From an uncultured bacterium (GTDB taxonomy: Bacteria; Patescibacteriota; Patescibacteriia; Patescibacteriales; UBA12465): 64,000 bases of DNA. The notes below the pieces were generated by a model that searched no databases, had not been told where the DNA came from, and was given only the letters and a program-made list of their open reading frames with translations. The stretch covers positions 3,812 through 67,811 of the forward strand of contig CAJAVM010000008.1 of the NCBI GenBank assembly GCA_903945435.1. The letters run 5' to 3'. Below, one piece after another: positions 1 to 61,876 of the stretch; the first letter of the stretch is position 1; every line of letters starts with the position of its first letter. The position numbers were made by a program, and so were the translations under genes.

Positions 1-18
1 TTGAGAACGGAGGAGTTA

Positions 19-3018
19 ATGAATGACATGATAAAAAAAGACGCTTGGACATTTTTAACGTATGGTCATAAATTAGGTGGCCAGATGAGCGTTGAAGAGC
101 TTACAAATTATATTGATAAGGCTAGCGAATCATCCCCTTATGTTTTATTTAGCCAGATAAGAAAATATGCAAAAATTCCAGGGTTAGATATTGAACAATT
201 AGTAAAAAAACACTCAGTAAATTATCCATTAGGAGTTGTAGCGAGTGCTCCATTTTTAAGACGAGTAATGAGCGAACCAGATTTAATAAAAATGTTAGAG
301 GATGCGGCCCCGAAAGTTGAACCAGCTTCTTTTCTATTAGCTTTCCCAGAATGCAAGAATATTAAAAGCATTGCTTCATCGGAGATATTAAATAAAACCT
401 TACTAGATGCTGCGACTGCTATCCCAGGTAATTTTATTGGAGAGAATGTATCCGTCTTTAAAGAAATGAGTAAGATGTCTGATGCGGATATAGTTAAGAT
501 TGCAAATCAATTAGAGTCGAGCTCACCAGCTTATTATTTAGAGCAGATTCGATTTCTAAAAAATGTAAAAGGATTAGATTTAAGTAAGTCTATTAATAGT
601 ATATATAATAAAGATAAGGATACTAAGAGAAATTTTTTAATGAATGCTGGCTATTTTGTTGATATCCCAAATTTAGATTTAGCGACTAAAATAGAAGAAG
701 TTGGCCGAGGAGATAAGGGTACATTTTTAACAAAGGCTGAGACTTTTAAAAATGTCCCAGGACTTGATTTGGGGAAATTAATTACCGAATTTGCGCCTGC
801 GCAAGGAAGTAACTTCTTATATTCAGCCTCTCAATTCAAAGATATAAAAAATCTTGATTTACCTAAACTAATTACTGAAATTGCCCCTTTTTCTCAAAAT
901 GAACGCGACGTTTTTTTATCATCAGTTGACGGATTTAAAGATATTAAAAATCTTGATTTAGTTGGTTTAATTAATAAAACAGCCCCCCTCTCAGGGCAGT
1001 CTTTCATCTACAGTATTAATAATTTTAAGAATATTCCTGGACTGGATGTTAATGCTTTAATTAATCGTATTGCCCCTCAGCAAAGTAAACTTTTTCTAGA
1101 GAATATAAAAGATTTTAAAGATATTCCAAACTTAAATTTAGGTAATTTAGTGAATTTAGCTCTTCCTGAACAAGCAGGTATGCTGTTAGAAATAATGGAC
1201 GATATTAAAGATATCCCGGGGGTAAAATTTGATGTTATTATTGATAATCTATCAAAACAAAACCCAAGGTTCTTTTTAGCGAATATTAATATTTTTAATA
1301 ATATTATTCATTTTGATACTGAAAAGACATTATTAAAAATGGTTGATACCCATCCTAACTTAATCATAGAGAATGCTGAATGTCTAAAATGTATTAAGGA
1401 TAAGACAGTAAAATTAGAAACAATCGAAAGAGTTTTTTCTCTTTATCCTGAGGGCGCACGTAATAATAAAAAGTTGTTAGACATTGTAGAGAACCCTCAA
1501 CTAAAAGTGAATCAAGTTTTGAAGAAAATGCAAAATATGAACGCCATTTTATTACTTGATGACATGGTTAAAAATAATATGTCGGAAGAAGAAGCGCTTG
1601 CTATTACTGGTGATTCCAATAAGCTTTTACCGAAGTTATTGGATATTAAGGCTCGACCTGATCATTTAGCAAAAGTTGCTATTGATGAATCGTTGGCTTC
1701 TACTTGCCGCGAACTAGTCCTAGATATAAATTTTAGACATACCTTACCCGATGAGCCCCGCTTTAAATCAATCGCGAGTTTTAGCTCTAGAGAGTTGTAT
1801 ACAACTATGGTTTATGGTGAAGACGAAATTTACACATCTTCTTTTAATGGTTGTTTTGATAGGTTAGTTGGTAGACGGGGAGTTGCTGGTCGTCCGGGTA
1901 TTGTTGGAAAAATGGAAACAGAAAAAATTAATGGTCGTGATTTACTTGATCAAGTTGGTGATAATAAATTTAGAACTTTTGTTAAAGAATGTACTTGGTT
2001 TAATCGTTTAGAAGAATTTTTAGGGAAAATGGATAAAAAAGATTCTGATGCTTTATTGAAAAATGTCGTTAAAAATATTGAAACAACTGATAATAAATTA
2101 GATAACGCCTTAACTTTAGCAGAAATATTTGGCGGGACTAAAGATCCTAGCACGCTTCAATTATTACAGGAACAAGTAAAAGTTGAGGTTGAAAGATTAA
2201 GCAAGGATGAAAAAGCTGCCCCAGAAGATAAGGTGATGTATAATTTATTAGCGGGGATGTTTAAGGATAATGCCATTGTTGATAAAGAATGGTTTGCAAA
2301 AATAGCGCAAGAATATCCGATGGGTAAAGTTACAAACCTAGATTCTAAGGAGCTCTTTAATGAAAACGGTTTATGTGTACAAAAATATCATTTTTATGAA
2401 GGCGGAGATAAAGACGGGGTTACTTCTTTTCAAAATTTTATCGATACCTATAAAGCTGATACCGCTACTTGGAAGATAGACGATAGTAATACTAACTATG
2501 TAGTTATTACTGGGAAAAATGGTGCTAGAACGATTGAAATATATGCTAATAATCCGAACGCAGCCGATAGGGGTAAAGAAGGACTTAATGAAATCGATGA
2601 GTTGATTAGCGGTAAGCAGTTAACGGTAAACTTATATTCGTATCGTGGTCATAGTACTAATGTAAGTTTGGATGGTGTTACGGAAAAAACTAAGATTATT
2701 AATCTTGGGTCTTGTGGCGGATTTAATCGTGTAAACGAAATTCTTGATTTATCTCCAGAGAGTCATGTAATTTCGACTAAAGGAACCGGAACTAAATATG
2801 TTAATGATCCTATTTTTAAAGATTTAAACGATGATATTTTAGCTGGTAAGGATATAGACTGGAGGCAGTTCTGGGATAAGCAAGCTAAGAAATTATCAGG
2901 TAACCCTAATTTTGGAAGCTATGTACCGCCTCACAAAAATCAGGGGATGATGTATATGAAGGCTTTCCGTGAAAAAACTAATATAGCCTTGAATGAATCA
3001 TTAGCTGAAGAGGAATAA
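19..3018 (+). CDS. Large tandem-repeat protein (~1000 aa) with C-terminal globular domain; function unknown
   Basis: The ORF is open from nt 1. The best start is ATG at 19, preceded by GGAGG at 9-13. The N-terminal half is an array of ~30-33-aa repeats. The C-terminus carries R-G-H-S (His codon 2650-2652) and G-S-C-G-G (Cys codon 2713-2715). No signal peptide or TM segment seen. Confidence 0.75.
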   Translation: MNDMIKKDAWTFLTYGHKLGGQMSVEELTNYIDKASESSPYVLFSQIRKYAKIPGLDIEQLVKKHSVNYPLGVVASAPFLRRVMSEPDLIKMLEDAAPKVEPASFLLAFPECKNIKSIASSEILNKTLLDAATAIPGNFIGENVSVFKEMSKMSDADIVKIANQLESSSPAYYLEQIRFLKNVKGLDLSKSINSIYNKDKDTKRNFLMNAGYFVDIPNLDLATKIEEVGRGDKGTFLTKAETFKNVPGLDLGKLITEFAPAQGSNFLYSASQFKDIKNLDLPKLITEIAPFSQNERDVFLSSVDGFKDIKNLDLVGLINKTAPLSGQSFIYSINNFKNIPGLDVNALINRIAPQQSKLFLENIKDFKDIPNLNLGNLVNLALPEQAGMLLEIMDDIKDIPGVKFDVIIDNLSKQNPRFFLANINIFNNIIHFDTEKTLLKMVDTHPNLIIENAECLKCIKDKTVKLETIERVFSLYPEGARNNKKLLDIVENPQLKVNQVLKKMQNMNAILLLDDMVKNNMSEEEALAITGDSNKLLPKLLDIKARPDHLAKVAIDESLASTCRELVLDINFRHTLPDEPRFKSIASFSSRELYTTMVYGEDEIYTSSFNGCFDRLVGRRGVAGRPGIVGKMETEKINGRDLLDQVGDNKFRTFVKECTWFNRLEEFLGKMDKKDSDALLKNVVKNIETTDNKLDNALTLAEIFGGTKDPSTLQLLQEQVKVEVERLSKDEKAAPEDKVMYNLLAGMFKDNAIVDKEWFAKIAQEYPMGKVTNLDSKELFNENGLCVQKYHFYEGGDKDGVTSFQNFIDTYKADTATWKIDDSNTNYVVITGKNGARTIEIYANNPNAADRGKEGLNEIDELISGKQLTVNLYSYRGHSTNVSLDGVTEKTKIINLGSCGGFNRVNEILDLSPESHVISTKGTGTKYVNDPIFKDLNDDILAGKDIDWRQFWDKQAKKLSGNPNFGSYVPPHKNQGMMYMKAFREKTNIALNESLAEEE
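133..1455 (+). repeat. In-frame degenerate tandem repeats (~30-33 aa unit) inside the large protein
   Basis: At least 8 clear and several degenerate copies of the core [IV]-[PK]-[GN]-L-[DN]-[LIV]-x-x-L-[IV], usually preceded by F-K-[DN] and followed by x-x-[IT]-A-P. There are DNA-level echoes, e.g. gatataaaaaatcttgattta at 841 and gatattaaaaatcttgattta at 940. Confidence 0.8.
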
Positions 3019-3021
3019 TTT

Positions 3022-3639
3022 ATGATAAAAAATATTATATTTGATTGGTCGGGAGTAATTAAAGATTCTGTTGAGGATCATCTTTTTTCTGTAAATTTAA
3101 TATTTAAAGAATTTGGCGCTCAGGAGATGACTTTGGAGGAACTAAAAGAAAATTGGGTGCAACCACACATGGATTTTTATAATAAATTTTTACCGGAGGT
3201 TAGTTCTGAACAACAGGAAGTAATTTATAGAAAAGCAATTACCCAACGTGTACCAAAACCATACCCCGGAGTCGCTGACTTAATTAGAGATTTAAAATTA
3301 CATGATTTTAAAATGGTTGTAATTAGCTCTGATCTTTTAGAAACCGTAACACCGGAAGTTATTAGCTTTGGTTTAGAAAATAATTTTCTAGAAATTGCCG
3401 CTAATGTTTATGATAAAGAAAAAACAGTTGCGGAATTAATAAAAAAATATAATTTTGATAAATACGAAACCGTAATAGTTGGCGACTCAAATCATGAGTT
3501 AGAAGTTGGAAAAAACATCGGAATAAAAACTGTCGCGACGACTTGGGGATTTACTACAGAAAAAAGATTAAGCACTCTACATCCAGATTTAATCGTTCAT
3601 AATTTATATGAATTGAGAGACGCATTTTTTAAATTATAG
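3022..3639 (+). CDS. HAD-superfamily hydrolase (phosphatase-like)
   Basis: 205 aa. Motif I is I-I-F-D-W-S-G-V near the N-terminus, motif II-like is V-I-S-S-D, and motif IV-like is V-G-D-S-N-H-E. Starts 3 nt after the preceding stop. Confidence 0.75.
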   Translation: MIKNIIFDWSGVIKDSVEDHLFSVNLIFKEFGAQEMTLEELKENWVQPHMDFYNKFLPEVSSEQQEVIYRKAITQRVPKPYPGVADLIRDLKLHDFKMVVISSDLLETVTPEVISFGLENNFLEIAANVYDKEKTVAELIKKYNFDKYETVIVGDSNHELEVGKNIGIKTVATTWGFTTEKRLSTLHPDLIVHNLYELRDAFFKL

Positions 3640-4496: not shown

Positions 4497-5480
4497 ATGA
4501 AAAAGCAGAACAATCAAAAAAAACAAGCGGTAATTTATCAAACTAAAACCGGAGCAATCGAGTTAAGTGGAGATGTGACTAATGAAACAATTTGGGCGAC
4601 TCAAGCCCAGATTGTTAAACTTTTTAATGTTGACCAATCTGTTATATCTCGTCATATAAATAATATCTTTAAAGACGGCGAGGTTATTTCAAAAGGCAAT
4701 ATGCAAAAAATGCATATTGCAAAGTCAGATAAGCCAGTGATGGTTTATTCTCTTGATATTATATTGAGCGTTGGTTATCGTACAAATTCTAAAATCGCAA
4801 TAGAATTCCGCAAATGGGCGACTAAAACTTTGCGCAGTTATATTACTACTGGTTTTGCTATTAATAAGAATAGAATTGTTAAAAATTATCAACAATTTTT
4901 AACGGCGGTTGAAGATGTGAAACATTTTCTGCCGGCTAATAAAAGTATAGACGCTGGAAGCGTCCTTGAGCTTATCAGCTTATTCGCCGATACCTGGTTT
5001 TCATTAAGCGCTTATGATAACGATTTTCCTGCGGTTAAAGGTGTTACTAAAAAGAAGGTAAATTTAACCGCAGATATGCTTTCTTTGAGTTTGGTGCAGT
5101 TGAAATCAGCATTAATTAAAAAACAAGAAGCTACTGAGCTTTTTGGTTTAGAAAAAAATCTAAATAGTATTTCTGGTATAGTCGGTAATATAATGCAAAC
5201 ATTTGATGGACGTGATTTATATCATAGTATTGAGGAAAAGGCGGCTCATCTTTTGTATTTTATGGTTAAAAATCATCCATTTGTTGATGGAAATAAGCGA
5301 AGCGGAGCTTACGCGTTCATTTGGTTTTTGCGACAGACAAAAGTTTTAGATGTTAATAAAATGACTCCAGTCGCGTTAACCGCCTTAACTTTGTTAGTTG
5401 CTGAAAGCAATCCCAAAGAAAAAGATAGAATTATTAGATTAATCCTAATGTTGCTAAATAAAAAAAGTGTTATAATATAA
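4497..5480 (+). CDS. RhuM-like N-terminal domain fused to a Fic/Doc domain (Doc-type motif)
   Basis: 327 aa. The N-terminus (..AQIVKLFNVDQSVISRHINNIFKDGEV..) resembles the RhuM family. The C-terminal part has H-P-F-V-D-G-N-K-R-S-G (5274-5306), a Fic core motif with the Doc-type N-K-R. Confidence 0.75.
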   Translation: MKKQNNQKKQAVIYQTKTGAIELSGDVTNETIWATQAQIVKLFNVDQSVISRHINNIFKDGEVISKGNMQKMHIAKSDKPVMVYSLDIILSVGYRTNSKIAIEFRKWATKTLRSYITTGFAINKNRIVKNYQQFLTAVEDVKHFLPANKSIDAGSVLELISLFADTWFSLSAYDNDFPAVKGVTKKKVNLTADMLSLSLVQLKSALIKKQEATELFGLEKNLNSISGIVGNIMQTFDGRDLYHSIEEKAAHLLYFMVKNHPFVDGNKRSGAYAFIWFLRQTKVLDVNKMTPVALTALTLLVAESNPKEKDRIIRLILMLLNKKSVII

Positions 5481-14289: not shown

Positions 14290-14304
14290 TATATAAAAAG
14301 TTCT

Positions 14305-16404
14305 ATGCTTAACCTCGATTCTGTTTTCAAGCCGCAATCAGTTGCGATTGTTGGCGCATCTACTAAGGCAGGTAGTGTCGGCAACGACGTTGTAAAAAAT
14401 TTAGCTTCTGATTTTGTTGGTAAGATTTATCCAGTTAATCCTAAGGCTGAAGAAATAGATGGTTTAAAATGTTATCCGTCTTTAAGTTCAATTTCTGAAA
14501 AAATAGATTTGGTGATTATTATTGTTCCCGCCGCCATCACCACGGCTATTTTAGAAGAGGCTGGTTCTTTAGGAGTTAAGGGAGCAATTGTAATTTCGGC
14601 TGGATTTAAAGAAGTCGGAAATATTGATTTAGAAAACCAGTTAAAAGAAATTAGTAAAAAATACGAAATTGCGTTGATTGGTCCAAATTGTTTAGGGATT
14701 ATTAATCCGGCAATCAAACTTAATGCTTCGTTTGCGCCTTTGATGCCTGCTTCTGGCTCTGTCGCTTTTATTTCTCAAAGCGGCGCTCTTTGTACAGCGG
14801 TTTTAGATTCCGCTCGAGAAATGAACGTTGGTTTTTCAAAATTTATGAGTGTTGGTAACAAGGCGGTAATTGATGAGGCAAATATTTTAGAATATTTAGC
14901 AAACGACGTCGAAACAAAAGTAATCGCTTTGTATGCTGAGCAATTAACGGAACCCGAAGTATTAATGAAAAATATAAAAAAAATAAGTCGTGGTGAAAAT
15001 GCTAAACCAATTATTATTTTAAAGTCAGGAAGAACTTCGGCTGGCGCTGGCGCAAGCGCTTCACATACGGGCGCCTTGGCTGGTAATGATGCCGCTTATG
15101 CTGCTCTTTTTCGCCAAGCGGGAGTTATTAGAGCTGATAGCGTTGAGGAATTATTTGATTATATAAAAATATTTAGCGGTAATAAGCTTGCCCCGGCTCA
15201 TAAGATTGCGATTGTAACGAATGCGGGCGGGCCTGGTGTATTAGCGATTGATGCGGCCATTGATAATAATTTAGAAATTGCGCAGTTGTCCGAAAATACC
15301 AAAACTGCTTTAACGAATACCTTGCCCCCAGCCGCTAACGTTAATAATCCAGTTGATGTGTTAGGCGATGGTCGGGCGGATAGATATCAAATTGCCTTGG
15401 AGGCAGTTTTAAATGATGAACAAGTAGAAGCAGCGGTAGTTATTTTAACACCGCAATCAACGACGGAAGTTGAAGCGACTGCTCAAGAAATTGTTGCTTC
15501 TCGTTTAAAATATAATAAGCCGATAGCGGTTGCCTTTATGGGGGAAGCTTTAGTCGCTGGCGGTTTACAGATTCTAAAAAATAATCAAATAGCGACTTAT
15601 TCTTATCCAGAATCAGCCGTCCGGGCTTTAAGTAAATTTTCTAAATTTTACGAATTAGCTCAACAAGTCTCAGAAGAAGTAGTTAATTTTTTTGATGTTG
15701 ATAAAAATAAAGTTGCGGAAATTTTTTCAACTTCTAAAGCAAAGGGAATTCATTCTTTTCCAGAAGCTTCCGCGTTAGCAATTTTAGAAGCTTATAAATT
15801 ACCTGTCCTTGCTAGTCGGGTTGCTCGTAGTAAAGAAGAGGCAGAAAAAATCGCTCAAGAGATTGGAAAAAAATTAGTTTTAAAAATTGTTTCTCCTGAT
15901 ATTTTACATAAAAGCGATGCGGGGGGAATTATGCTTAATGTTTTTCCGGAAGAAGCGGGAGAGAAATTTGAAGAAATGATGAAACAGGTTGGGATTAATA
16001 AACCCGAAGCAAAATTAGAAGGCGTTTTATTAGTTGAGATGATAACGGATAAGGGAATTGAACTTATTTTAGGAAGTATGAAGGACGCGAGCCTAGGAAA
16101 TGCTATAATGTTAGGGTTGGGTGGAATCTATGTTGAGATTCTAAAAGATGTTGCTTTCGGTCTAAATCCATTACTTACTTCCGATGTTTATAACATGCTA
16201 AATAGTTTGAAATCTAAAAAGATTTTAGACGGTGCTCGCGGTGCTAAGCCAGCTGATAAATTAGCAATCATAGAATGTGTTTTGCGGCTAGCTCAGCTAC
16301 TTCGAGATTTTCCAGAAATAAAAGAATTAGATATTAATCCACTTTTAGTTTTAGAAGAAGGAAAAGGCGCAAAAGTTCTTGATGCGCGTATCGTAATTGA
16401 ATAA
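14305..16404 (+). CDS. ADP-forming acetyl-CoA synthetase (acetate--CoA ligase, fused alpha/beta)
   Basis: 699 aa. CoA-binding N-terminus (S-V-A-I-V-G-A-S), G-P-N-C-L-G-I, S-Q-S-G-A-L, the phosphohistidine loop A-S-H-T-G-A-L-A-G, and a C-terminal ATP-grasp-like domain. Confidence 0.85.
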
Positions 16405-16412
16405 TAAAAAAT

Positions 16413-18635
16413 ATGAAAAATAAAATTCAAACCTCAGCTTTAAATAAAATAGACGTTCGCTCTTTTGTATTTAAAAATATTACTCCTTATAAAGGTGACG
16501 CTTCTTTTTTATCCGGTCCTTCTAAAAAAACAAAAAAACTTTGGGGGGGATGTGAAAAATTATTAAAGCGCGAAATGAAAAATGGCGGCGTTTTAAAAAT
16601 AGATAATAAAATAGTTTCTTCCATCACTAGCCATAAACCAGGTTATATCGATAAATCTTTAGAAGTTATTTTCGGATTACAAACCGATGAGCCATTAAAA
16701 CGCGCCGTAAAACCATATGGTGGATTAAGGGCAATTGAGAAAGCTTGCGAGGAAAATAAAGTTAAACTTGATGAAAAAATTAGTGAAGTTTTTTCAAAAT
16801 ACCGTAAGACTCATAACGATGGTGTCTTTGATGCCTATACTGATAAAATGCGCTTATTACGTAAGACAGGCGTTCTAACTGGACTACCTGATGCTTATGC
16901 GCGCGGAAGGATAATCGGCGACTATCGTCGCGCCGCGCTTTACGGAATTGATTATTTAATAAATTTAAAAAAAGACGATAAAAATAAATTGGACCCGGAA
17001 GAAATGACTGAGGAAACAATTCGTTTGCGTGAAGAAATTAGCGAACAGATTCGTGCGCTCGAAGATATGAAAGTGATGGCTAAGAGTTATGGTTTCGATA
17101 TTAGCCAACCCGCAAAAAATGCCCGTGAAGCAATTCAATGGACTTACTTCGCTTATCTTTCAGCTTTAAAAGAACAGGACGGCGCGGCAATGAGTTTAGG
17201 AAATGTTAGTTCTTTCTTTGATATTTATTTAGAACGTGATTTGGTCGCTGGGGTTATTAATGAAGAAGGTGCACAAGAATTAGTCGATCAATTTATTATT
17301 AAATTAAGATTAGTTCGACATCTACGTCCTGATGAATATAATCAACTTTTTGCTGGCGACCCAACTTGGCTTACCGAATCAATCGGGGGAATGTTTGAAA
17401 ACGGAAAAAGCAAAGTTACTAAAACTTCTTATAGATTTTTGCAAACTCTATTTAATATTGGTCCCTCACCAGAGCCTAATTTAACAGTTTTATGGTCGGA
17501 AAAATTACCAGCTAACTTTAAAAAGTTTTGTGCTGAAGTTTCAGTGAAGACATCATCAATTCAATATGAGAATGATGATTTAATGCGCGCGACTAGCGGT
17601 TGTGATGATTATGGAATTTCTTGTTGCGTTTCTAAACTGAATATTGGTCAACAGATGCAATATTTCGGTGCGCGTTGTAATTTAGCGAAGGCTTTACTGA
17701 TTGCCCTTAACGAAGGGAATGATGAGATGAGTGGTGCTAAGATTGTTGATGGTATTTTACCGTTAAGCGGGAAGACGCTTGATTATAAAAAAGTAGTTAT
17801 TGAATTTAAAAAGAGTATTGCCTTTCTAGCTAAGGAATATATAAAGACCATGAATGCCATTCATTACATGCATGATAAATATTATTATGAGAAAGCACAG
17901 ATGGCTTTAATTGATAGTAATGTTGATAGATTAATTGCTTTCGGTTTAGCAGGATTATCAGTCGTGGCTGATTCTTTATCAGCTATCAAATATGCAAAGG
18001 TTGTTCCGATTAGAAACGAACAGGGGATTACGACTGCTTTCGAAATTAATGGCGACTATCCAAGGTATGGAAATAATGATAAACGAGTTGATGATATCGC
18101 AGTTAAATTAGTTAATGATTTTAATGCCGAATTATCGAAGCATCATATTTATCGCGGCGCAACGCCAACTCTTTCGATCTTAACAATTACTTCTAATGTT
18201 GTTTATGGTTTAAAAACTGGAGCAACGCCTGATGGCCGTGAAGCTGGAGCGCCATTTGCTCCTGGTGCAAATCCAATGCATGGACGCGATACTAGCGGGG
18301 CAATCGCTTCTTTAAATTCAGTTGCAAAATTAGATTACAGTAATGCCCGTGATGGAATCTCAAATACTTTTAGTATTACACCAACAACTTTGGGCCATGA
18401 TTTAGAAGAACAAACTAAAAATTTAGTCGCCTTGCTTTCAGGATATTTTACTAAAGGTGCCCATCACTTAAATGTAAATGTTTTTAATCGTGAAACTTTA
18501 GAAGACGCGATGAATCATCCGGAAAAATATCCGCAGTTAACGATTCGCGTTTCTGGGTATGCCGTTCACTTTGTAAGGCTATCAAGAAAGCAGCAACAAG
18601 AAGTTTTAGCTCGAACATTTTTTGAGAAGATTTAA
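16413..18635 (+). CDS. pflB: Pyruvate formate-lyase (glycyl radical enzyme)
   Basis: 740 aa. Adjacent active-site cysteines (I-S-C-C-V-S) and the glycyl-radical motif R-V-S-G-Y-A-V-H-F near the C-terminus. Confidence 0.92.
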
Positions 18636-29417: not shown

Positions 29418-30554
29418 TTATAAATTATTGATTATATTTTGTAGTTTTATTGAATTATCTAAAGCGTTATGGTTTTTGTAGAAAGTTTTTTTAGCGTTAA
29501 CGACCAATTTTGTGGAATATTCTTCATTACTAGTCAATTTTTTAATAGCCGATAGTAATAGCTCTTGATCCTCCGCATCAACCACTTCGGCAAAATTATA
29601 TTCTTTTCCATATTTAGCTATAAAGGAATATTCAGGTGCATGTATTAAGATTGGTCTGCCGGAGATTAAATAATCGGTTAATTTACCAGGGCTAGCAGTT
29701 TTTATTATATCAGGAGCCTCAGTATTCCAAGAAAGAGGAAGAAATAAAATATCTGCCTCACTTTGAATTTTTGGCATTGTATCTGGTTCAGAATACAGAA
29801 AACGTATTTTTTTGCTATTTTCAGATGCTGTAATTATTTCATCTGGTACTTTAGGACAATATATATCTAAATTAATGTTTGTATTACTCGGTGATTTTAT
29901 TAGGTTCATTAAATTAATTATACTATTTTTTTGTGGCCAATAGATGTTTCCAGTAAAAACTATTTTAATATTTTTATTGTTAATTTTTTTTTCTTCTATT
30001 TTTGCATAGTTATCTGAAAAAACGGAATTGTAAATTATTTCAAACTTATCCAATCTCCTGTACAGTTTTTGATAATAATCTTTTGTTGCCTCATTAGTAA
30101 TTATTATTTTTTTTGCACCTTTAAAAAATATTGGCTCAAAGAAGTTTATAGCTTTATTTTTAATAGCAAAAATATTTCCTCTCCATAGATCAAATAAAAA
30201 AATACAATATGATTTTTGGGTTATTTTCGCAAGTATAAATGTTATAAAGAAAGAAAATCCACCATCAGAAATAGCAATAATATTGTCTATATTGTCGTTT
30301 TTTATTATTTTTAATCCAAGTTTAATTGCCTGGTATATTTTTTGTAATTTATTTTTATTATTTTTTAAAAAATAATATTTACACCCTAAATTTTTTCCGC
30401 CGCGGTTTTTGTCGTTTAAGTTATTTTTATTTGTTAGTATACAATACTCATCACTATTAATATTAATAAATAGATTATATAAGTTTTGCGCGCCACCAAC
30501 TTGCGGAGGAGCCCAAGATGAGATAATTAAAATTTTTTTATTTAGATTGAGCAT
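29418..30554 (-). CDS. GT-B glycosyltransferase (group 1-like)
   Basis: 378 aa with a very AT-rich gene. The C-terminal half has a GT-B-like pattern (..L-F-L-P-L-S..P-G-K-L-T-D-Y-L-I-S-G-R-P-I-L-I). Confidence 0.6.
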   Translation of the reverse strand: MLNLNKKILIISSWAPPQVGGAQNLYNLFININSDEYCILTNKNNLNDKNRGGKNLGCKYYFLKNNKNKLQKIYQAIKLGLKIIKNDNIDNIIAISDGGFSFFITFILAKITQKSYCIFLFDLWRGNIFAIKNKAINFFEPIFFKGAKKIIITNEATKDYYQKLYRRLDKFEIIYNSVFSDNYAKIEEKKINNKNIKIVFTGNIYWPQKNSIINLMNLIKSPSNTNINLDIYCPKVPDEIITASENSKKIRFLYSEPDTMPKIQSEADILFLPLSWNTEAPDIIKTASPGKLTDYLISGRPILIHAPEYSFIAKYGKEYNFAEVVDAEDQELLLSAIKKLTSNEEYSTKLVVNAKKTFYKNHNALDNSIKLQNIINNL

Positions 30555-33216
30555 GTCTGATTAGTTTGTAGACTTTTTTAGTTATTTCGAATAAGCCTAG
30601 TTTCTTTAAGATAATAATAATTAGTCTTTTTGTATAGATACTAACATTTTCAGCAATTATCCTATTTATAATGATATCATGTATTATAAATATAATTTTG
30701 TTGTTAATTTTCTTATCAGACTCAACTTTCTTAGTGTCAAATTTTTTTGAATCTATTTCCAGGCTTACCTTTTGAAGCAGGCGCTTCCATTTATCCATAG
30801 ACGCCTCAACGGTTACTCCATATTTTATTAATGTTTCCCTGGGATAAAATATTTTTTCTGAAATTTCTTTGATGCCAATTTCTAAATCATCTCCGAAGTA
30901 GCCAATTTTATTTAATTCATCTTCAGATATATCACCGAATATTCCAGTTTTATGCATTACGATTGGTATATTGCACAGGCCAGCTTCTATTGCGGCTAGG
31001 CATTGAGTTTCGATTGGCGATCCTAATATAAAGAAGTCAGCACAATTTAAAAGTTCGGACAGTAGTAGCTGGTTTATTTGATTAAAAACAATAACGTCAT
31101 TTCTCTCATATTTTTCTTGTTTTTTTGTTACTAAAATCCAGAATATTTCTTTATGGCATTCTATTATTTTTTTTATTTCGCTCCACCCCTTAACTTCCGA
31201 AAAATCTCCAACAAAAATGCCAATCTTTTTATTTGTCTTTAATAAATTTTTTTCTTTTAAATATTCTTTATTTTTTTGAGGATAAAACAAGTTACTATCT
31301 ACTCCAACAGGAATAATTTCGCAATCGTATTCGCTATAGGATGCAGCTGTATTGATGGAGTTAGTAACAATTTTATCTGAATTCTTGAGGTTAATTTCTT
31401 GTTGTATGCTTTTTTTCCCCATGGCTCTTAAATCATCTTGCAAAAAAGCAATTGTGTATATTTCATCTGAAATTTTTTCTATAAAACTCGCATTTTGTAT
31501 AATTATTTTAGTATTCTTTTCTTTAAGGATATTTTGACAATCCTTTTTAAATTTCTTCTGTCTAGAGTGCAGCGCTTTAAAGTCGAGCGGATATGAGCCA
31601 AGTATATTTTCCAGTATAAAATTCCAGAAAACTTTTTCGCCCATTATTCCTCCCGTTAAATCATTTATAACGGCGATGCTGGTGCTATCTTCTTTTTTAT
31701 TTTCATTTTTACTATCCATTTCTCCGCACTGAAAATGATATACAACAGACTGAAAAGAAGTTTTATGTTTTATTCCTCTTAAGGCTAATTTATCCATTAG
31801 TATTTTATCCCCAGATATTTGTGGCTCCCCTAATCTTGCTATTTTTGGGCTGTGTATATTGCTGCCAATCTTAGCATTCCCCTCTGGATATCCTCCCACA
31901 CCGATGAAATCCTTCTTTTTTATTAGTAATGGCATAAATAATCCGCCTTCATTTATAGCATCTCTTTTAATTTTATTTTGATATAACTGGAAATCTTGTT
32001 CTTTATAATTATCAATTTCTGTGCCAAAATTTTTTTTAATTCCATATTTTCCTGGAGTTAATTTTCCAGATTCTACCAATCTGGAAGCTATACAATTTTT
32101 GCCATCGTATTTATCTATTAGATTTTCAGACCAATTATTACTAAAGGCCATGTCTGAGTTAATAAATATAATAAAATCTCCCTTAGCTTGTTCGGCGGCA
32201 TAATTCCATGCTCTGTAAACGTTATTGATGTACCATTCTTTTTTATGTTCCTCTGTATTATTAAAAATATAATGCGGAAGATGATTTTCTGTTAAATATT
32301 TTATAACTTCATCGTTAGCATCGTTTGCTACAAAATAAAATTCCTTGTCAGATAGGTCTGTGTATTTTAGTACTTGCTCATACACAAATTTTAGCCAGTC
32401 AACGCTTTTATAAATTAAACAAGCTATCGAATATTTAGGCCTGGTAATTTTTTCTCTGTAATTATAAATATAATGAATGGAATCAGCTAGTGCTAGTTTA
32501 TTTGGTTTTTTTTCGTCATTTATGTATAGCTCGTTTGGTATATATTCTTTATCAACCTTTTCTGTTTCAAGTCTATCTTCGCTTATAATTCTGTCTAGCA
32601 TAACATAGCCTCGTTGCCCATGTTTTTTGTAAGTTAAATATTTATAAGCTATATTTTTTTCATCGTAGAAACCATAGTGGATAATTGACACTTTTTCTGT
32701 TTTTAGCACTTCATCTATGCCATTAGGGGCAAGAGATTGATGGAGGCCTGGTTTGTTTTTATAAGATAAATCTTTTTTTACTTTCCAAATTTTTGTAAAC
32801 CAACCTTCGTCGTAAAGGCTGTCTGTTCGTTTCCATGTAGAGCTTCTCCACAAATTTATTTCTTTCATGCTTACACCATCGTATTTATTTTTGGCACATT
32901 CCTCGCATAATGCTATTAGTTGATCTTTTGTGCAACTCAACAATTCGTCAGCATCTATACATACTATAAAATCAGCTTTTTCTTCTAGAGCAGCACTTAA
33001 TAGTAAGGATTTATGTTTAACTTCCTCTGAGAAATTATTATTACCGCCCCTTATTACTTTATCTGCGTTATTTAGAGAATATTCATAGCTACCATCAGTA
33101 CTGCAATCATCATAAATAATAATTTTATCTACCAACGGTTTTATATATTTAAAAAAGCGTTCAATATTTCCTTTTTCCATCTCATTATATATTTGGCATA
33201 TTCCAATTATTTTCAT
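30538..33216 (-). CDS. Three-domain glycosyltransferase (GT2 + GT2-like + GT-B)
   Basis: The ORF extends to 33291, but M-K-I-I-G-I-C.. at 33216 forms an ATGA overlap with the upstream stop, giving ~892 aa. Domain 1 has Y-D-D-C-S-T-D-G-S and I-D-A-D-E. Domain 2 has Y-S-I-A-C-L-I-Y-K..F-I-N-S-D-M. Domain 3 has E-T-Q-C-L-A-A-I-E-A-G (E-x7-E). Confidence 0.7.
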   Translation of the reverse strand: MKIIGICQIYNEMEKGNIERFFKYIKPLVDKIIIYDDCSTDGSYEYSLNNADKVIRGGNNNFSEEVKHKSLLLSAALEEKADFIVCIDADELLSCTKDQLIALCEECAKNKYDGVSMKEINLWRSSTWKRTDSLYDEGWFTKIWKVKKDLSYKNKPGLHQSLAPNGIDEVLKTEKVSIIHYGFYDEKNIAYKYLTYKKHGQRGYVMLDRIISEDRLETEKVDKEYIPNELYINDEKKPNKLALADSIHYIYNYREKITRPKYSIACLIYKSVDWLKFVYEQVLKYTDLSDKEFYFVANDANDEVIKYLTENHLPHYIFNNTEEHKKEWYINNVYRAWNYAAEQAKGDFIIFINSDMAFSNNWSENLIDKYDGKNCIASRLVESGKLTPGKYGIKKNFGTEIDNYKEQDFQLYQNKIKRDAINEGGLFMPLLIKKKDFIGVGGYPEGNAKIGSNIHSPKIARLGEPQISGDKILMDKLALRGIKHKTSFQSVVYHFQCGEMDSKNENKKEDSTSIAVINDLTGGIMGEKVFWNFILENILGSYPLDFKALHSRQKKFKKDCQNILKEKNTKIIIQNASFIEKISDEIYTIAFLQDDLRAMGKKSIQQEINLKNSDKIVTNSINTAASYSEYDCEIIPVGVDSNLFYPQKNKEYLKEKNLLKTNKKIGIFVGDFSEVKGWSEIKKIIECHKEIFWILVTKKQEKYERNDVIVFNQINQLLLSELLNCADFFILGSPIETQCLAAIEAGLCNIPIVMHKTGIFGDISEDELNKIGYFGDDLEIGIKEISEKIFYPRETLIKYGVTVEASMDKWKRLLQKVSLEIDSKKFDTKKVESDKKINNKIIFIIHDIIINRIIAENVSIYTKRLIIIILKKLGLFEITKKVYKLIRHAQSK

Positions 33217-34010
33217 ATTTTTAAACCTTTTAAAGTTTTTATTGAATATCTTAATACTTTTATTATTACCTTCGTGATTAGTCCGTACCACTTCCCAAAA
33301 TAATAATCCTGGGCTTCGTAATAATATTTTTTTCTTTCACTATTTAAACTAAGACTTTTCCCGCCAAGATGGGTTATGTTTGTTTTTAAATTGACGACGG
33401 TCTCATATCTCTCCTCCTTAACTCGCTTACAAATATCAACGTCTTCAAAGTAGAGAAAGAAATGGTCATCCCAGCCACCAACTTTTTTAAATAATTCTCT
33501 TCTTATCATTAACGCGCAACCACTTACCCAATCGGTTTTTAATATCTCTGCTTCAGTAGGGATTTTTTGTTCTTTTTTAGTTACCTGAGTTATGAGTCTC
33601 CAGAAAGTAGGGAATCGACCAAAGGCATTTTTTTGATATTCGTTATTTTCTAGTTTTAGACGTGGAGATATTATTCCTATCTTCTCATTCTGTTTAAATA
33701 AACTCAAGCATTCTGATAGAAAATCCTCGGTAGCTATCGTATCGCTATTTAGGAATAATAAATAATCTCCGGTTGCAAGAGCGGCTCCTTGATTATTAGC
33801 CCCCGCAAATCCTAGATTTTTCTTGTTAACGATAATCTGAATTTTATCACCAAACTCGCCCCTTAGCATCTCAACGCTTCCATCTTCCGAATGATTATCT
33901 ATAACGATTATCTCCCGTTCCTCCGGTCTTGGCAAGGTAAAAAGGCTCTTTAAGCAGGCGATAGTAAGCTCTGGGGTTTTGTAGTTAATGATTATTGCCG
34001 AAAATGTCAT
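33213..34010 (-). CDS. Family 2 glycosyltransferase
   Basis: 265 aa. F-S-A-I-I-I-N-Y-K-T, V-I-D-N-H-S-E-D-G-S and L-N-S-D-T. Confidence 0.8.
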   Translation of the reverse strand: MTFSAIIINYKTPELTIACLKSLFTLPRPEEREIIVIDNHSEDGSVEMLRGEFGDKIQIIVNKKNLGFAGANNQGAALATGDYLLFLNSDTIATEDFLSECLSLFKQNEKIGIISPRLKLENNEYQKNAFGRFPTFWRLITQVTKKEQKIPTEAEILKTDWVSGCALMIRRELFKKVGGWDDHFFLYFEDVDICKRVKEERYETVVNLKTNITHLGGKSLSLNSERKKYYYEAQDYYFGKWYGLITKVIIKVLRYSIKTLKGLKI

Positions 34011-57820: not shown

Positions 57821-60475
57821 GTGAAACTAATGCTTAAGTTTATTATTATGGATAAAATTATTTTCTATCAATTAGCCGCTGATGCAACATTTAAAAAGTT
57901 GCAATCTTCTGTTTCCGGTTTAAATTCCGCAGAGGCTGCTAAACGTTTAGCGGAAAACGGTTTAAATAAATTACCCAAGGAGAGAGCCCTTAATGGTTTG
58001 CGTTTATTTTTTAATCAGTTCAAAAACCCTCTGGTTTTTATTTTAATTGCTGCTTTGATAATCAGTTTCTTCGCCGGGCATAGTTCTGATTCTTGGATTA
58101 TTTTAGTTGTTGTTTTAGTTACCAACACGATTGGGTTCTTGCAGGAGTGGAAAGCGAACAATGCTTTAGAAAAACTAAATAATACCGTTACTTATAAAGT
58201 AAGGACTTGGCGTAATGGAGAGTTAACAATTTGTGAACGGGAAGATTTAGTTATTGGTGATGTGATTGAATTAGCTGCGGGAGATGTTGTTCCGGCTGAT
58301 GCTCGTATATTTATTGCTAAAAATTTAAAAATAAACGAAGCACCTTTAACTGGTGAATCTTTACCGGTTGAGAAAAATATTATTGAAATAAAAAAATCAG
58401 TTCCACTTGCTGAAAGAATTAATATCGCTCATCAGGGGACTGTAGTTGCTGATGGTTTTGGGCGGGCAGTGATTATTGCTGTTGGTCAGGACACGGAGAT
58501 TGGACAGGTTGCTAAGTTAATTAAAGAAACTAGTGATGAATTAACTCCTCTGCAAAAACAAATTAATAAATTTGGTATTCGCCTTGGTATTTTTTTAGTT
58601 GCCGCTAATGTGGTCATCTTTTTTATAGGAGTTTTGTTGGGTCGTGATATTTTTGAAATGTTTATGGTTTCGGTTGTGATAGTTGTTTCAGCAGTTCCTG
58701 AAGGCTTAATTCCGGCGATGACAATTATTTTAGCAATTGGAATGCAACGCTTAGCTAAGAAGCAAGGTTTAGTTAGACGAGCAGTCGCCGCTGAGACCTT
58801 AGGTTCGGTTTCGGTAATCTGTGCAGATAAAACTGGAACCTTAACTCAGGGAGAAATGTTAGTTGATAAACTTATTACTTCTGGAAAAGTTGTTAGCGGC
58901 GGGAATCATTCCTTAGCCCTTAAAATTAGCGTTATATGTAATGACGGCTTAATAGAAAATCCTGGTGATAAATCGGGAGCTTTAAAAGTATCGGGAAATC
59001 CGACGGATAAAGCTTTACTGCTTTCAGGCGCGGCCATTGGTTTATTTCGTAAGGAATTAGAAATATTAGAACCACGATTAGATGAGATTGCCTTTTCTTC
59101 CGATTTAAAAATGATGGCGACTTTAAATGAAGCGGAAGCTGGTGGAGAAATAATTTATGTTAAGGGTGCTCCAGAAAAAATATTAGAATTATCAACAATG
59201 ATGGAAGTTGATGGGTATGAGAAAAAAATTCTTAAAAAAGATAGAGAGGAATTTATTAATCAAATCAACAAATTTACTAAAACTGGAGAGAGGGTAATTG
59301 CTTTAGCTTATAAAACAAGGCCTGGCTCTAAAAGTAAAAATTTAAAACCGTCTGATTTAGAGGGTCTGACGTTATCCGGCTTTTTTTCACTTCGCGATCA
59401 GATACGAACCGATGTTAAGCAAGCGATTCAATCCTGTCGTGAGGCGGGAATTAGGGTGGTTATTATTACTGGCGACCATGCGCAGACGGCGATTTCTATT
59501 GTTAAAGAACTAGGGTTAGAAATAAATAATCATAATGTGATTGATGGCGAGGAATTGGACGAACTTAGTGATCAGGAGCTTAAATATCGTATTAATGATA
59601 TTAGACTTTACGCACGTGTTAGTCCTCATCACAAGTTAAGGATTGTTAATGCTTTTCAAGAAATGGGGCGAGTAGTGGCTATGACTGGCGACGGGATTAA
59701 CGATTCTCCAGCTTTAAAGAAAGCGGATATTGGAGTCGCAGTTGGAAATGGAACTGATGTTGCTAAAGAAACAGCCGATTTAGTTTTACTTGATAATAAC
59801 TTCTTAACGATTGTTGAGGCAGTTAAACAGGGAAGAATAACTTTTAATAATATTCAAAAAGTTATTTTATATTTATTTACTGATTGTTTTCAAGAAATGA
59901 TTATTATTGGGACATCGGTATTTATGGGTTGGCCCTTACCGATTTTACCAGTTCAGGTTTTATGGATTAAATTAATTGAAGATCCTTTACCAGCCGCTAG
60001 TTTAGCATTTGATGTTTCTGATGATGATGTTATGAAAGATAAGCCCAGGGGCAAAGACCAACCATTTTTAACGGTTCAGTTACAAAAAATAATTGCTTTT
60101 TACGCAATTATTATGGATGTGATTGCTCTGGCTATTTTTTACTATTATTTTAAAATAGTTGGTAATATTGAGTTAGCGCGAACGATAATGTTTACAACTT
60201 TGGGCTTTAGTACGATGTTCTATATTTATGCAGTTCGAAGTTTGAAGCGTTCTATTTTTAAAACGAATCCTTTTTCTAATAAGTTTTTGGTTTACGCAAC
60301 TTTATTAGGAGGTGGGCTTATCTTCGCTTCGGTTTATGTGCCGTTTTTAAATCGCCTGTTAAGTACGGTCCCATTATCCGCTTTCGACTGGATTCCCGTT
60401 CTTAGTTACGGTTTATTAGGAGTAATGATTTTTGAAATCGGTAAAAATCTTTTTAGATTAAATCGGAAGAGGTAA
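57821..60475 (+). CDS. P2-type cation-transporting P-type ATPase (Ca2+/Mg2+-like)
   Basis: D-K-T-G-T-L-T, T-G-D-G-I-N-D-S-P-A-L, P-E-G-L in TM4 and a cation-ATPase-N-like start. No CPC motif. The true start may be ATG 57830 or 57848 rather than GTG 57821. Confidence 0.88.
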   Translation: MKLMLKFIIMDKIIFYQLAADATFKKLQSSVSGLNSAEAAKRLAENGLNKLPKERALNGLRLFFNQFKNPLVFILIAALIISFFAGHSSDSWIILVVVLVTNTIGFLQEWKANNALEKLNNTVTYKVRTWRNGELTICEREDLVIGDVIELAAGDVVPADARIFIAKNLKINEAPLTGESLPVEKNIIEIKKSVPLAERINIAHQGTVVADGFGRAVIIAVGQDTEIGQVAKLIKETSDELTPLQKQINKFGIRLGIFLVAANVVIFFIGVLLGRDIFEMFMVSVVIVVSAVPEGLIPAMTIILAIGMQRLAKKQGLVRRAVAAETLGSVSVICADKTGTLTQGEMLVDKLITSGKVVSGGNHSLALKISVICNDGLIENPGDKSGALKVSGNPTDKALLLSGAAIGLFRKELEILEPRLDEIAFSSDLKMMATLNEAEAGGEIIYVKGAPEKILELSTMMEVDGYEKKILKKDREEFINQINKFTKTGERVIALAYKTRPGSKSKNLKPSDLEGLTLSGFFSLRDQIRTDVKQAIQSCREAGIRVVIITGDHAQTAISIVKELGLEINNHNVIDGEELDELSDQELKYRINDIRLYARVSPHHKLRIVNAFQEMGRVVAMTGDGINDSPALKKADIGVAVGNGTDVAKETADLVLLDNNFLTIVEAVKQGRITFNNIQKVILYLFTDCFQEMIIIGTSVFMGWPLPILPVQVLWIKLIEDPLPAASLAFDVSDDDVMKDKPRGKDQPFLTVQLQKIIAFYAIIMDVIALAIFYYYFKIVGNIELARTIMFTTLGFSTMFYIYAVRSLKRSIFKTNPFSNKFLVYATLLGGGLIFASVYVPFLNRLLSTVPLSAFDWIPVLSYGLLGVMIFEIGKNLFRLNRKR

Positions 60476-61849
60476 TTAACGCAATTCATCCTCACTTTCA
60501 ACGACTAAAAATTTACCAGTATACATTCCCATTGAGCAGGAGAAACTAATTTCTCCTGTTTTATTTGGAGTAAATTCAATAATATTTTCTCCTGGTTTTA
60601 GTTGAGTTTGAATTTTTAAACTAGGAACAACAATGGCGCTTGCGCAAGAGTATGGTGCTTCAGCATCAATTATCCATTTAACCGGCTGGTCTTTAAGAAT
60701 GATAAATGAGTTAGGAACATAACCGCGGTTAGTTTCTTTCATGCGGATTATTCTTGAGCCATCTTCTGTTTCTATATTTGAATTTGTACCAGTCGTGTTT
60801 TTAGCACTATCTTTTTCAATTATACTTGAGTTTCCATTAAAAAAAGTCGGCGCTGAAATTTTAAATAAGCGATAGCCGTTAACTAAATTAAATAAACCAA
60901 AGGCAACAACAATTACTCCAGCGGCGATAAAGAAATTTTTTGATTTCTTTTTACCAAGCAAAGCGCTTGCCCCGCCTATTCCTAATAAGCCTGGAGCAGT
61001 TCCTAGGGCGAAGAGCGCCATAATTAATCCGCCGCCCATAAAAGTTCCAGTTCCTAGAGCATAAATTTGCATCGCCTGAGTAAAACCACAGGGAAGAAAA
61101 AAGGTTAAAGCGCCAAGAAGTAAGGGGCTATCAATTTTTACAACGTTTCCAAATTTTTTAGGAAGAGAAAAATCTAACTTATTTAAAGAAGGAGAAATAT
61201 CTAAGAGTTTTAATCCTAGTACTAAAATAACGCCGCCGATAATTAGGGTAATCACTGAATTTAAAATAGAGGACATTTTAAAAGCGGAACCGACTAGACC
61301 TAAAATTCCTCCAAGAATAAAAAAACCAACTACTCGTCCTAGATTAAATAATAAGTGAGGAATAAACTTTTGTTTACTATTTGCTTCGGGATGATTTTTA
61401 GCATAAGTAGCGGCTAAGCTGAAAACTAATCCGCCCACTAAAGCTAAACAAGTAGAGACGCCAGCGACTAGTCCGACCAAAATTGCTAGCGGCCAAGAAA
61501 ATTCTCCTTTAATTAATCCGCCAAAATCAAGAATATTAGTTTGATTTAGGAGCCAATAAAATATTAAAATAGCGGCCGTAACCGAAATAAAATAACTTAA
61601 GTCTTTTTTTCCTCCAGAATCTGAATCGGTTTTTCCTAAACCATAACCAGCAGCTTTTAAATTAGCGGCAATTTCTTCTAATTTAGGTTCATCACCCTCA
61701 TAGGTTATTTCTGCTAAGCCGGTTCGATGATTTACTTCGGCTTTTTTAACATTCTTAATTTCTTTAAGGCTATCTTCGGTTAATATTTCACAGGCTTTAC
61801 AATGCAAACCCGCAATGGGAACGACGAGTTTATTTGCCATATATTTCAA
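60476..61849 (-). CDS. Fusion membrane protein: HMA metal-binding domain + TauE/DsbD_2-like polytopic core + C-terminal cupredoxin-like domain
   Basis: 457 aa. N-terminal G-L-H-C-K-A-C (HMA CxxC), ~7 TM segments including F-F-L-P-C-G-F, and C-terminal ..P-Y-S-C-A-S..F-S-C-S-M-G-M-Y-T-G-K-F-L-V-V-E. Confidence 0.7.
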   Translation of the reverse strand: MKYMANKLVVPIAGLHCKACEILTEDSLKEIKNVKKAEVNHRTGLAEITYEGDEPKLEEIAANLKAAGYGLGKTDSDSGGKKDLSYFISVTAAILIFYWLLNQTNILDFGGLIKGEFSWPLAILVGLVAGVSTCLALVGGLVFSLAATYAKNHPEANSKQKFIPHLLFNLGRVVGFFILGGILGLVGSAFKMSSILNSVITLIIGGVILVLGLKLLDISPSLNKLDFSLPKKFGNVVKIDSPLLLGALTFFLPCGFTQAMQIYALGTGTFMGGGLIMALFALGTAPGLLGIGGASALLGKKKSKNFFIAAGVIVVAFGLFNLVNGYRLFKISAPTFFNGNSSIIEKDSAKNTTGTNSNIETEDGSRIIRMKETNRGYVPNSFIILKDQPVKWIIDAEAPYSCASAIVVPSLKIQTQLKPGENIIEFTPNKTGEISFSCSMGMYTGKFLVVESEDELR

Positions 61850-61876
61850 TCTAGTTATTTTTATTTTTAGGTCTAA

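Follow-up and report, generated by a model that had tools for sequence, protein, structure and literature searches.

The window analysed here is a 64,000-nucleotide stretch of contig CAJAVM010000008.1 from an uncultured bacterium of the Patescibacteriota, and this account concerns the gene at its very start, which encodes most of a repeat protein ending in a conserved two-domain module with a candidate catalytic Cys–His pair. A first-pass annotation had described an open reading frame (ORF) that starts at base 19 and encodes about 1000 residues. The gene is in fact truncated by the window edge. In the ORF listing the frame is open from base 1 to the stop codon at 3016–3018, and looking up the adjacent HAD gene (window 3022–3636) in public assemblies led to two contigs, one of 153 kb and one of 110 kb (L012), with a gene of 1299 codons upstream of the HAD gene on L012 (1098–4997). 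The end of its product is identical to the window translation, and contig L008 covers all 3018 window bases with zero mismatches. The 5′ 882 nucleotides thus lie beyond the window, which holds residues 295–1299, or the last 77% of the 1299-residue protein. The ATG at base 19, which resembled a start because GGAGGAG precedes it, encodes the internal Met301. Residue numbers below count from this Met; adding 300 gives the number in the full-length protein. Conservation is given for 247 aligned module sequences (246 at C-terminal positions), and strands and helices are those of the AlphaFold2 model described below. The features are as follows:

1–3018, + strand: partial gene, codons 295–1299 plus stop; frame open to base 1, full gene at L012 1098–4997
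1–531, + strand: degenerate repeat units, from weak matches to a repeat hidden Markov model (HMM), e.g. IPGLDIEQLV at residues 53–62; one unit runs across the window start
532–1269, + strand: eight clear tandem units of 30 or 33 residues, x-F-L-x5-F-K-D-I-P-G-L-D-L-x-x-L-I-x-x-x-A-P, from the repeat HMM and unit alignment
1531–2328, + strand: helical domain, all-helical in the model with a predicted local distance difference test score (pLDDT) >90; conserved set N571, R581-F582, Y594, E603-x-x-T-S-S-F-N-G611, R652-x-F654 and Y741 (151 representatives)
2341–2973, + strand: alpha/beta domain, seven strands with flanking helices (pLDDT 95.1 for the whole module)
2407–2418, + strand: D797-K-D799-G800 in the loop after strand 1 (D797 245/247, D799 246/247, G800 244/247), with S803 nearby in sequence (244/247)
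2548–2550, + strand: N844, last residue of strand 4 (IEIYAN-x-P) as placed by the model, 244/247
2644–2655, + strand: R876-G-H878-S879, candidate general-base His directly past strand 5 (R876 241, G877 245, H878 245 and S879 239 of 247)
2707–2721, + strand: G897-S-C899-G-G901, candidate nucleophile Cys in a strand-turn-helix elbow past strand 6 (C899 and G900 each 246/247)
2779–2805, + strand: K921-G-T-G924-x4-N929 past strand 7 (K921 226/246, G924 245/246, N929 237/246)
2920–2940, + strand: Y968-V-P-P971-H-K-N974, C-terminal segment (Y968 and P971 246/246, N974 242/246, H972 only 191/246)

The codons for the His (2650–2652, in YSYRGHS) and the Cys (2713–2715, in GSCGG) lie in the frame and at the positions that the first-pass annotation had given them. 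Its description of the repeats also holds: at least eight clear units of 30–33 residues with the core F-K-[DN]-I-[PK]-[GN]-L-D-L-x-x-L-I were claimed, and the eight units at 532–1269 have a mean pairwise identity of 0.318, vs. 0.067 ± 0.009 (maximum 0.102) in 2000 shuffles. Weaker copies flank this stretch on both sides, and the unit composed of FLENYGNLKNIPDL and RTEELMNDMIKKD is split between them by the window edge. Tandem Repeats Finder did not detect the array in the DNA, the copies being too diverged. A Pfam search at E ≤ 1 matched no repeat family (HEAT, ARM, TPR, LRR and Sel1 included) and gave two sub-threshold unrelated matches only, and the repeat region alone has zero homologues at E ≤ 1e-3 in 5.8 billion proteins. 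The FKDIPGLDL repeat is present in 25 of 246 family members, all of them close relatives within the Candidate Phyla Radiation (CPR); judged from these sequences, the array is clade-specific and restricted to a small CPR clade. We infer a helix-turn-helix stalk. An Omnitrophica homologue (L005 346–2685) has a different N-terminal repeat of ~33 residues, KDYSWAEDFLKKAFEGAL, as well as an extension of ~150 residues past the module. Fusion to repeat arrays that are not related to one another has therefore happened to the module more than once.

A widespread two-domain module

The region downstream of the array had been read as about 350 residues with no motif followed by an enzyme unit in the last ~200 residues. 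Both parts belong to a single conserved module of ~470 residues, in which the supposedly featureless stretch is the conserved helical half and the His and Cys are carried by the other. A word-indexed search recovered only two full-length relatives (P0001 and P0002, 34–35% identity), and among species-representative genomes five metagenome-assembled genomes (MAGs), labelled Saccharibacteria, Giovannonibacteria, Omnitrophica, "Planctomycetales" and one unclassified bacterium, carry the C-terminal half, with differing N-terminal regions. The true extent of the family emerged when the C-terminal 560 residues were used in an exhaustive HMMER search. A stretch of ~470 residues was matched in 958 cluster representatives at E ≤ 1e-3, and in 590 when the threshold was lowered to E ≤ 1e-30. 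The module is usually C-terminal in these proteins, which range from 310 to 7391 residues, and it is paired with many unrelated N-terminal regions. Members come from CPR lineages including Pacebacteria/Paceibacterota, from Bacteroidota (many, on contigs up to 3.56 Mb), Omnitrophica and Margulisbacteria. A profile search of a 90%-identity collection gave 198 proteins; wherever a source names one, the name is "hypothetical protein", and none has a precomputed Pfam domain over the module. Neither the window protein nor its relatives had a meaningful match in sequence searches of Pfam, NCBIfam and PDB, no NCBIfam family recurred, and we found no relevant literature on the motifs of the module. A viral contig scan returned no relatives, and neither the repeat nor the module has a paralogue elsewhere in the window. 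Several members are giant proteins (P0097 with 7391 residues, P0124, P0140, P0130 and P0039), some with the module in mid-chain, for example at residues 3233–3687 of 7391. Such a position is reminiscent of the self-cleaving domains inside large toxins. In the seven giant members scanned with Pfam (P0097 not among them), the only domains were scattered, unrelated ones, namely SpoIIE, TPR, Glu dehydrogenase and GNAT.

AlphaFold2, run on residues 500–999 with a 64-sequence alignment, produced a confident model of the whole module (pLDDT 95.1; predicted TM-score 0.92), in which a helical domain (model residues 1–270) packs on an alpha/beta domain; modelled alone, the alpha/beta domain has a pLDDT of 93.6. 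The elements of the alpha/beta domain run b1-a1-b2-b3-b4-a2-b5-(16-residue loop)-b6-a3-b7-a4, with further helices at the C-terminus. The DxDG motif is located in the b1-a1 loop, N844 at the end of b4, RGHS past b5 and KGxG...N past b7, and GSCGG bridges b6 and the N-terminus of a3 (model strand 394–397, helix 402–412). In the model, all five elements are at C-terminal strand ends, and we infer that these conserved residues form one pocket.

The conservation pattern is striking in both domains. In the helical half N571, R581, F582, Y594, E603, T606, S607, G611, R652, F654 and Y741 are near-invariant, and in the module as a whole nine more polar residues besides the His and Cys are kept in at least 90% of sequences. 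The His is present in 245 and the Cys in 246 of the 247 homologues, so that homologues lacking them, which the first-pass annotation had named as evidence against its reading, are all but absent. Cys899 is the sole family-wide conserved Cys and is not a disulfide partner, because no other Cys is conserved across the family. In 235 sequences the His and Cys are spaced 23 residues apart, and in the subclade of the window protein 21. This subclade also has Tyr875 (window 2641–2643), giving Y-R-G-H-S, and the motif reads H-R-G-H-S in 232 of 247 sequences. We considered H916, D930 and H972 as triad partners, all three being invariant in the first three sequences compared, and rejected them since they vary across the family (142/246, 168/246 and 191/246, respectively).

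A candidate thiol enzyme at the cell surface

What could such a module do? The first-pass annotation had proposed a repeat region fused to a possible thiol-dependent enzyme, of which the repeats and the conserved His and Cys stand as observed, and the enzyme activity is suggested by sequence and model. Catalysis is favoured because about a dozen polar residues are near-invariant over a wide phylogenetic span, because the single unpaired invariant Cys has nucleophile-elbow geometry, and because the conserved residues are on the active-site edge of the alpha/beta sheet. On this basis we rate the chances that the module is a Cys/His thiol enzyme in general as about even. In the mechanism that we propose, Cys899 (Cys1199 of the full-length protein), at a helix N-terminus in the Gly-Ser-Cys-Gly-Gly elbow, would be the nucleophile and His878, at the end of the preceding strand, the general base, with Asp797/Asp799, Asn844, Arg876, Lys921 and Asn929 on adjacent strand-end loops shaping the substrate pocket and oxyanion hole. 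The reaction would most likely cleave or transfer a peptide or amide bond at the cell surface. A bolder and rather less likely proposal is that the module represents a hitherto unrecognised family of extracytoplasmic Cys-dependent enzymes (peptidase, transpeptidase or amidase), or perhaps even a clan of its own. Such a family could combine an alpha/beta fold without a solved relative, a requirement for the helical partner domain and self-processing in the giant proteins.

The main rival is that the His, the Cys and the two Asp are ligands for Zn, Fe or Cu, which would make the module a metalloenzyme or a metal/redox sensor. Asp, His and Cys are a common set of metal ligands; in the model D797, D799, H878 and C899 occupy neighbouring strand-end loops, and none of the four is replaced in more than two of the 247 sequences. 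However, no known metal-site motif, metalloenzyme family or fold was matched, the Cys is placed in a Gly-rich strand-turn-helix elbow of the kind typical of nucleophiles, and the conserved Arg, Lys, Asn, Ser and Tyr are better suited to binding a substrate or oxyanion. We therefore regard metal binding by these residues as unlikely.

The first-pass annotation saw neither a signal peptide nor a transmembrane segment, an artefact of the truncation. The N-terminus missing from the window consists of an acidic tail of ~108 residues followed by LGKIILGLGFTSVATGEVGA (residues ~110–131), which is the sole hydrophobic segment of the protein and contains its most hydrophobic 19-mer (mean Kyte-Doolittle 1.32). 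The relatives P0001, P0002, P0018 and P0242 likewise have a hydrophobic segment near the N-terminus, and the Bacteroidota members P0212, P0177 and P0160 have classic signal peptides; the Bacteroidota members with signal peptides are 690–757 residues long, and CPR members have a signal-anchor. With a crude hydropathy threshold, a hydrophobic 15-mer precedes the module in 114 of 237 Met-started members. Given the N-terminal anchor here and in relatives and the signal peptides in Bacteroidota, the protein is therefore probably extracytoplasmic and membrane-anchored. We picture a 1299-residue single-pass membrane protein with its N-terminus inside and the remainder outside, made up in order of the ~108-residue acidic tail, the putative anchor, a spacer, the stalk of ~30-residue repeats and the C-terminal 470-residue module. 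A cytoplasmic protein whose hydrophobic stretch is not a membrane anchor would fit the moderate hydrophobicity of the segment and the Giovannonibacteria and Omnitrophica ORFs, which have no obvious signal peptide; it is at odds with the recurrence of a hydrophobic segment at the equivalent position in relatives and with the canonical signal peptides in Bacteroidota, and we consider it distinctly unlikely.

A membrane anchor, a repeat stalk and a distal globular head are also the architecture of an adhesin, and no enzyme family was matched. The repeats and module could accordingly bind a partner at the surface, the module being a non-catalytic binding or adhesion domain. Against this, the near-invariance of about twelve polar residues in ~1000 clusters from CPR to Bacteroidota far exceeds what binding domains usually show, there is no easy structural explanation for one invariant, unpaired Cys in an extracytoplasmic protein, and the module occurs with many unrelated N-terminal regions. 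We judge an adhesin very unlikely, and less likely than a metal site. Finally, a serine esterase or lipase resembling alpha/beta hydrolases, with Ser879 as its nucleophile and Cys899 as an accessory residue, is highly improbable: S879 is kept in 239 of 247 sequences and G-H-S past a hydrophobic strand resembles the G-H-S-x-G lipase elbow, but the second small residue of the elbow is absent (GHS-Y/T-H/N), GHS is followed in the model by a 16-residue coil instead of a helix, H916, H972 and D930 vary as described above so that no downstream acid or His is kept family-wide, and no alpha/beta hydrolase was matched by Foldseek or Pfam.

The module is present in about a thousand sequence clusters from at least five bacterial lineages, and neither domain databases nor solved structures cover it. 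Should it prove to be a thiol enzyme of the cell surface, it would bring a widely distributed activity to the Bacteroidota envelope. In CPR bacteria, for which little is understood of the envelope and of interactions with partners, it would be one of a small number of surface proteins with a recognisable catalytic role.

Neighbouring genes and other features of the window

A comparison of gene neighbourhoods in six lineages revealed no conserved partner, and the neighbourhoods examined have no sign of an operon partner, defence island or mobile element. The neighbours are Fic, HAD, HD and RhuM-Fic genes in the genome of the window; SecF, LemA and HtpX in a Saccharibacteria MAG; MutS and SpoU, or rimM-trmD-rplS, in Bacteroidota; and MreBC with sugar-metabolism genes, or rpsP-trmD, in other CPR genomes. 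With these housekeeping neighbours and the wide distribution of the module in Bacteroidota, the earlier suggestion of a host- or partner-interaction factor of a reduced genome receives no specific support. Fic-domain genes flank the locus, with a 302-residue Fic protein encoded just upstream of the full gene (L012 1–904) and a RhuM+Fic protein three genes downstream (window 4497–5480, + strand). In two distant lineages the module gene is located just downstream of trmD (L009 4343–9274; L019 4309–6980), the gene orders being rimM-trmD-rplS-glyA-[gene] in the Bacteroidota member P0212 and rpsP-KH-trmD-[gene] in the Pacebacteria member P0018. The four other contexts differ, and the adjacency to trmD may be due to chance.

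Elsewhere in the window, an ADP-forming acetyl-CoA synthetase-like gene is followed by a pyruvate formate-lyase gene with a glycyl-radical domain (14290–18632, + strand); on matching contigs a radical-SAM gene, a candidate pyruvate formate-lyase activase, and a formate/nitrite transporter gene are found ~1–2 kb upstream. Together these genes suggest a fermentative core metabolism. A 932-residue ORF (30541–33336, − strand) fuses three glycosyltransferase domains, two of GT2 type and one of GT1 type. At 57821–61876 a P-type cation ATPase gene adjoins a convergent gene that fuses an HMA domain, a DsbD_2 membrane region and a cupredoxin-like domain, a possible metal-handling pair. No tRNA, rRNA or other Rfam family reached threshold in the 64 kb (window 1–64000).

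Comparison with known systems

The nearest analogy that we can draw is with the His-Cys peptidases of clan CD (C11/C80 type). A distant clan-CD-like peptidase or transpeptidase is the most specific hypothesis because the His precedes the Cys on consecutive strands, and we put it forward as possible though doubtful. Several observations weigh against this idea or against the wider picture of a surface thiol enzyme. The spacing of 21–23 residues between His and Cys, without an intervening helix, is shorter than the 46 residues of PmC11 and the ~33–50 residues of other clan-CD enzymes, and the module has G-H-S where the clan motif is H-G. As proposed at first pass, the model was searched with Foldseek; the prediction itself is confident (pLDDT 95.1), and the search gave no confident match to any fold, catalytic or non-catalytic, with nothing at E < 1e-3 for the whole module in PDB and BFVD or for the alpha/beta domain in PDB. 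The lists consist mainly of three-layer folds of a generic kind (small GTPases, uridine and MTA phosphorylases, peptidyl-tRNA hydrolase), and TM-scores are 0.2–0.4. In the domain-only search the secreted C11 peptidase iotapain (6nag_B) has a probability of 0.92, the top value, shared by three structures, over 193 aligned columns, but this match is weak (rank 12, E 7.7e-3, TM 0.33, rmsd 7.5) and falls below small GTPases and uridine phosphorylase. Foldseek retrieved no caspase, legumain, gingipain or CPD structure within its top 50. An hhalign comparison with human caspase-3 is not significant (P 0.18) and aligns the Cys strand only; that with legumain is not significant either. No Pfam peptidase family, and no recurrent family, appears at E ≤ 5 over 64 members, and Pfam or NCBIfam profiles of C11, C13, C14, C25, C50, C80 and CHAT match neither the window protein nor 64 relatives at the same threshold. 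The moderate hydrophobicity of the anchor (mean Kyte-Doolittle 1.32 over 19 residues) also counts on this side. On the other hand, the Pfam, Foldseek and repeat searches brought up neither a non-catalytic fold that is already known nor a repeat family that has been characterised, in keeping with the first-pass reading.

The first-pass annotation had noted that YkuD and GATase-1 patterns fit only partly, and indeed each lacks a defining feature in the module, together with any Pfam match. YkuD L,D-transpeptidases are extracytoplasmic, as the module probably is, and have a His ~20 residues ahead of a Gly-Cys nucleophile, as in the module. They require, however, a beta-sandwich with H-x(15-18)-[ST]-x-G-C-[IV]-R (S-x-G-C-[IV]-R around the nucleophile), whereas the module is alpha/beta and its Cys is followed by G-G-[YF]-N (C-G-G-[YF]), without the Arg. 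Cys-nucleophile alpha/beta hydrolases of the dienelactone-hydrolase type, DJ-1 and class I glutamine amidotransferases (GATase-1) have a Gly-x-Cys-x-Gly elbow leading from a strand to a helix N-terminus, as in the module. In GATase-1/DJ-1 a conserved His (and Glu) lies downstream of the elbow Cys, and alpha/beta hydrolases carry nucleophile, acid and His in this order on a canonical sheet of eight strands. The conserved His of the module is upstream of the Cys instead, no downstream acid or His is kept (for GATase-1/DJ-1, neither H916 nor H972 is family-wide), no alpha/beta hydrolase is among the top 50 Foldseek hits, and there is no fold or Pfam match to any of these families. We reject a place for the module among the YkuD, GATase-1/DJ-1 or alpha/beta-hydrolase enzymes. 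The stalk, for its part, recalls the ~30-residue helical repeats of the HEAT-like and PBS-lyase type in its period and in the hydrophobic positions around a Pro/Gly turn; it differs in having no Pfam repeat match at E ≤ 1 and no homologue at E ≤ 1e-3.

Members of clan CD have a His-Cys dyad ending consecutive strands of a sheet ordered 2-1-3-4(-5-6) with flanking helices (PMC4357240). In PmC11 the sheet order is 4-3-2-1-5-6-7-8-9, with His133 ending b5 and Cys179 ending b6 and 46 residues and a helix between them (PMC4850288, PMC4357240). Dyads in which His comes before Cys occur in peptidase clans CD, CL, CP and CQ, and mutual sequence similarity is often absent between the members of a clan (PMC12445089). 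In the pLDDT-95 model of the module His878 is past strand 5 and Cys899 past strand 6, which are consecutive, and the order b1-a1-b2-b3-b4-a2-b5(His)-b6(Cys) is compatible with the N-terminal sheet arrangement of PmC11. The module differs from clan CD in having no significant sequence, profile or Foldseek similarity to it, no antiparallel terminal strand (from its secondary-structure string) and an obligatory N-terminal helical domain of ~270 residues with invariant residues of its own. The likenesses to PmC11, iotapain (6nag) and C80 are the apparent alpha/beta/alpha sandwich of the model, His and Cys in that order with each ending one of two consecutive strands at its C-terminal side, and acidic residues on the loop past strand 1, where clan-CD enzymes, which are strictly selective at P1, place their P1-specificity residues. 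In addition, many C11 and C25 enzymes are secreted, and the C80 domain of MARTX toxins has a mid-protein position, as does the module in giant proteins of the family. This family has no name and no structural relative that we detected, but a secreted thiol enzyme on a repeat stalk would be of a familiar kind.

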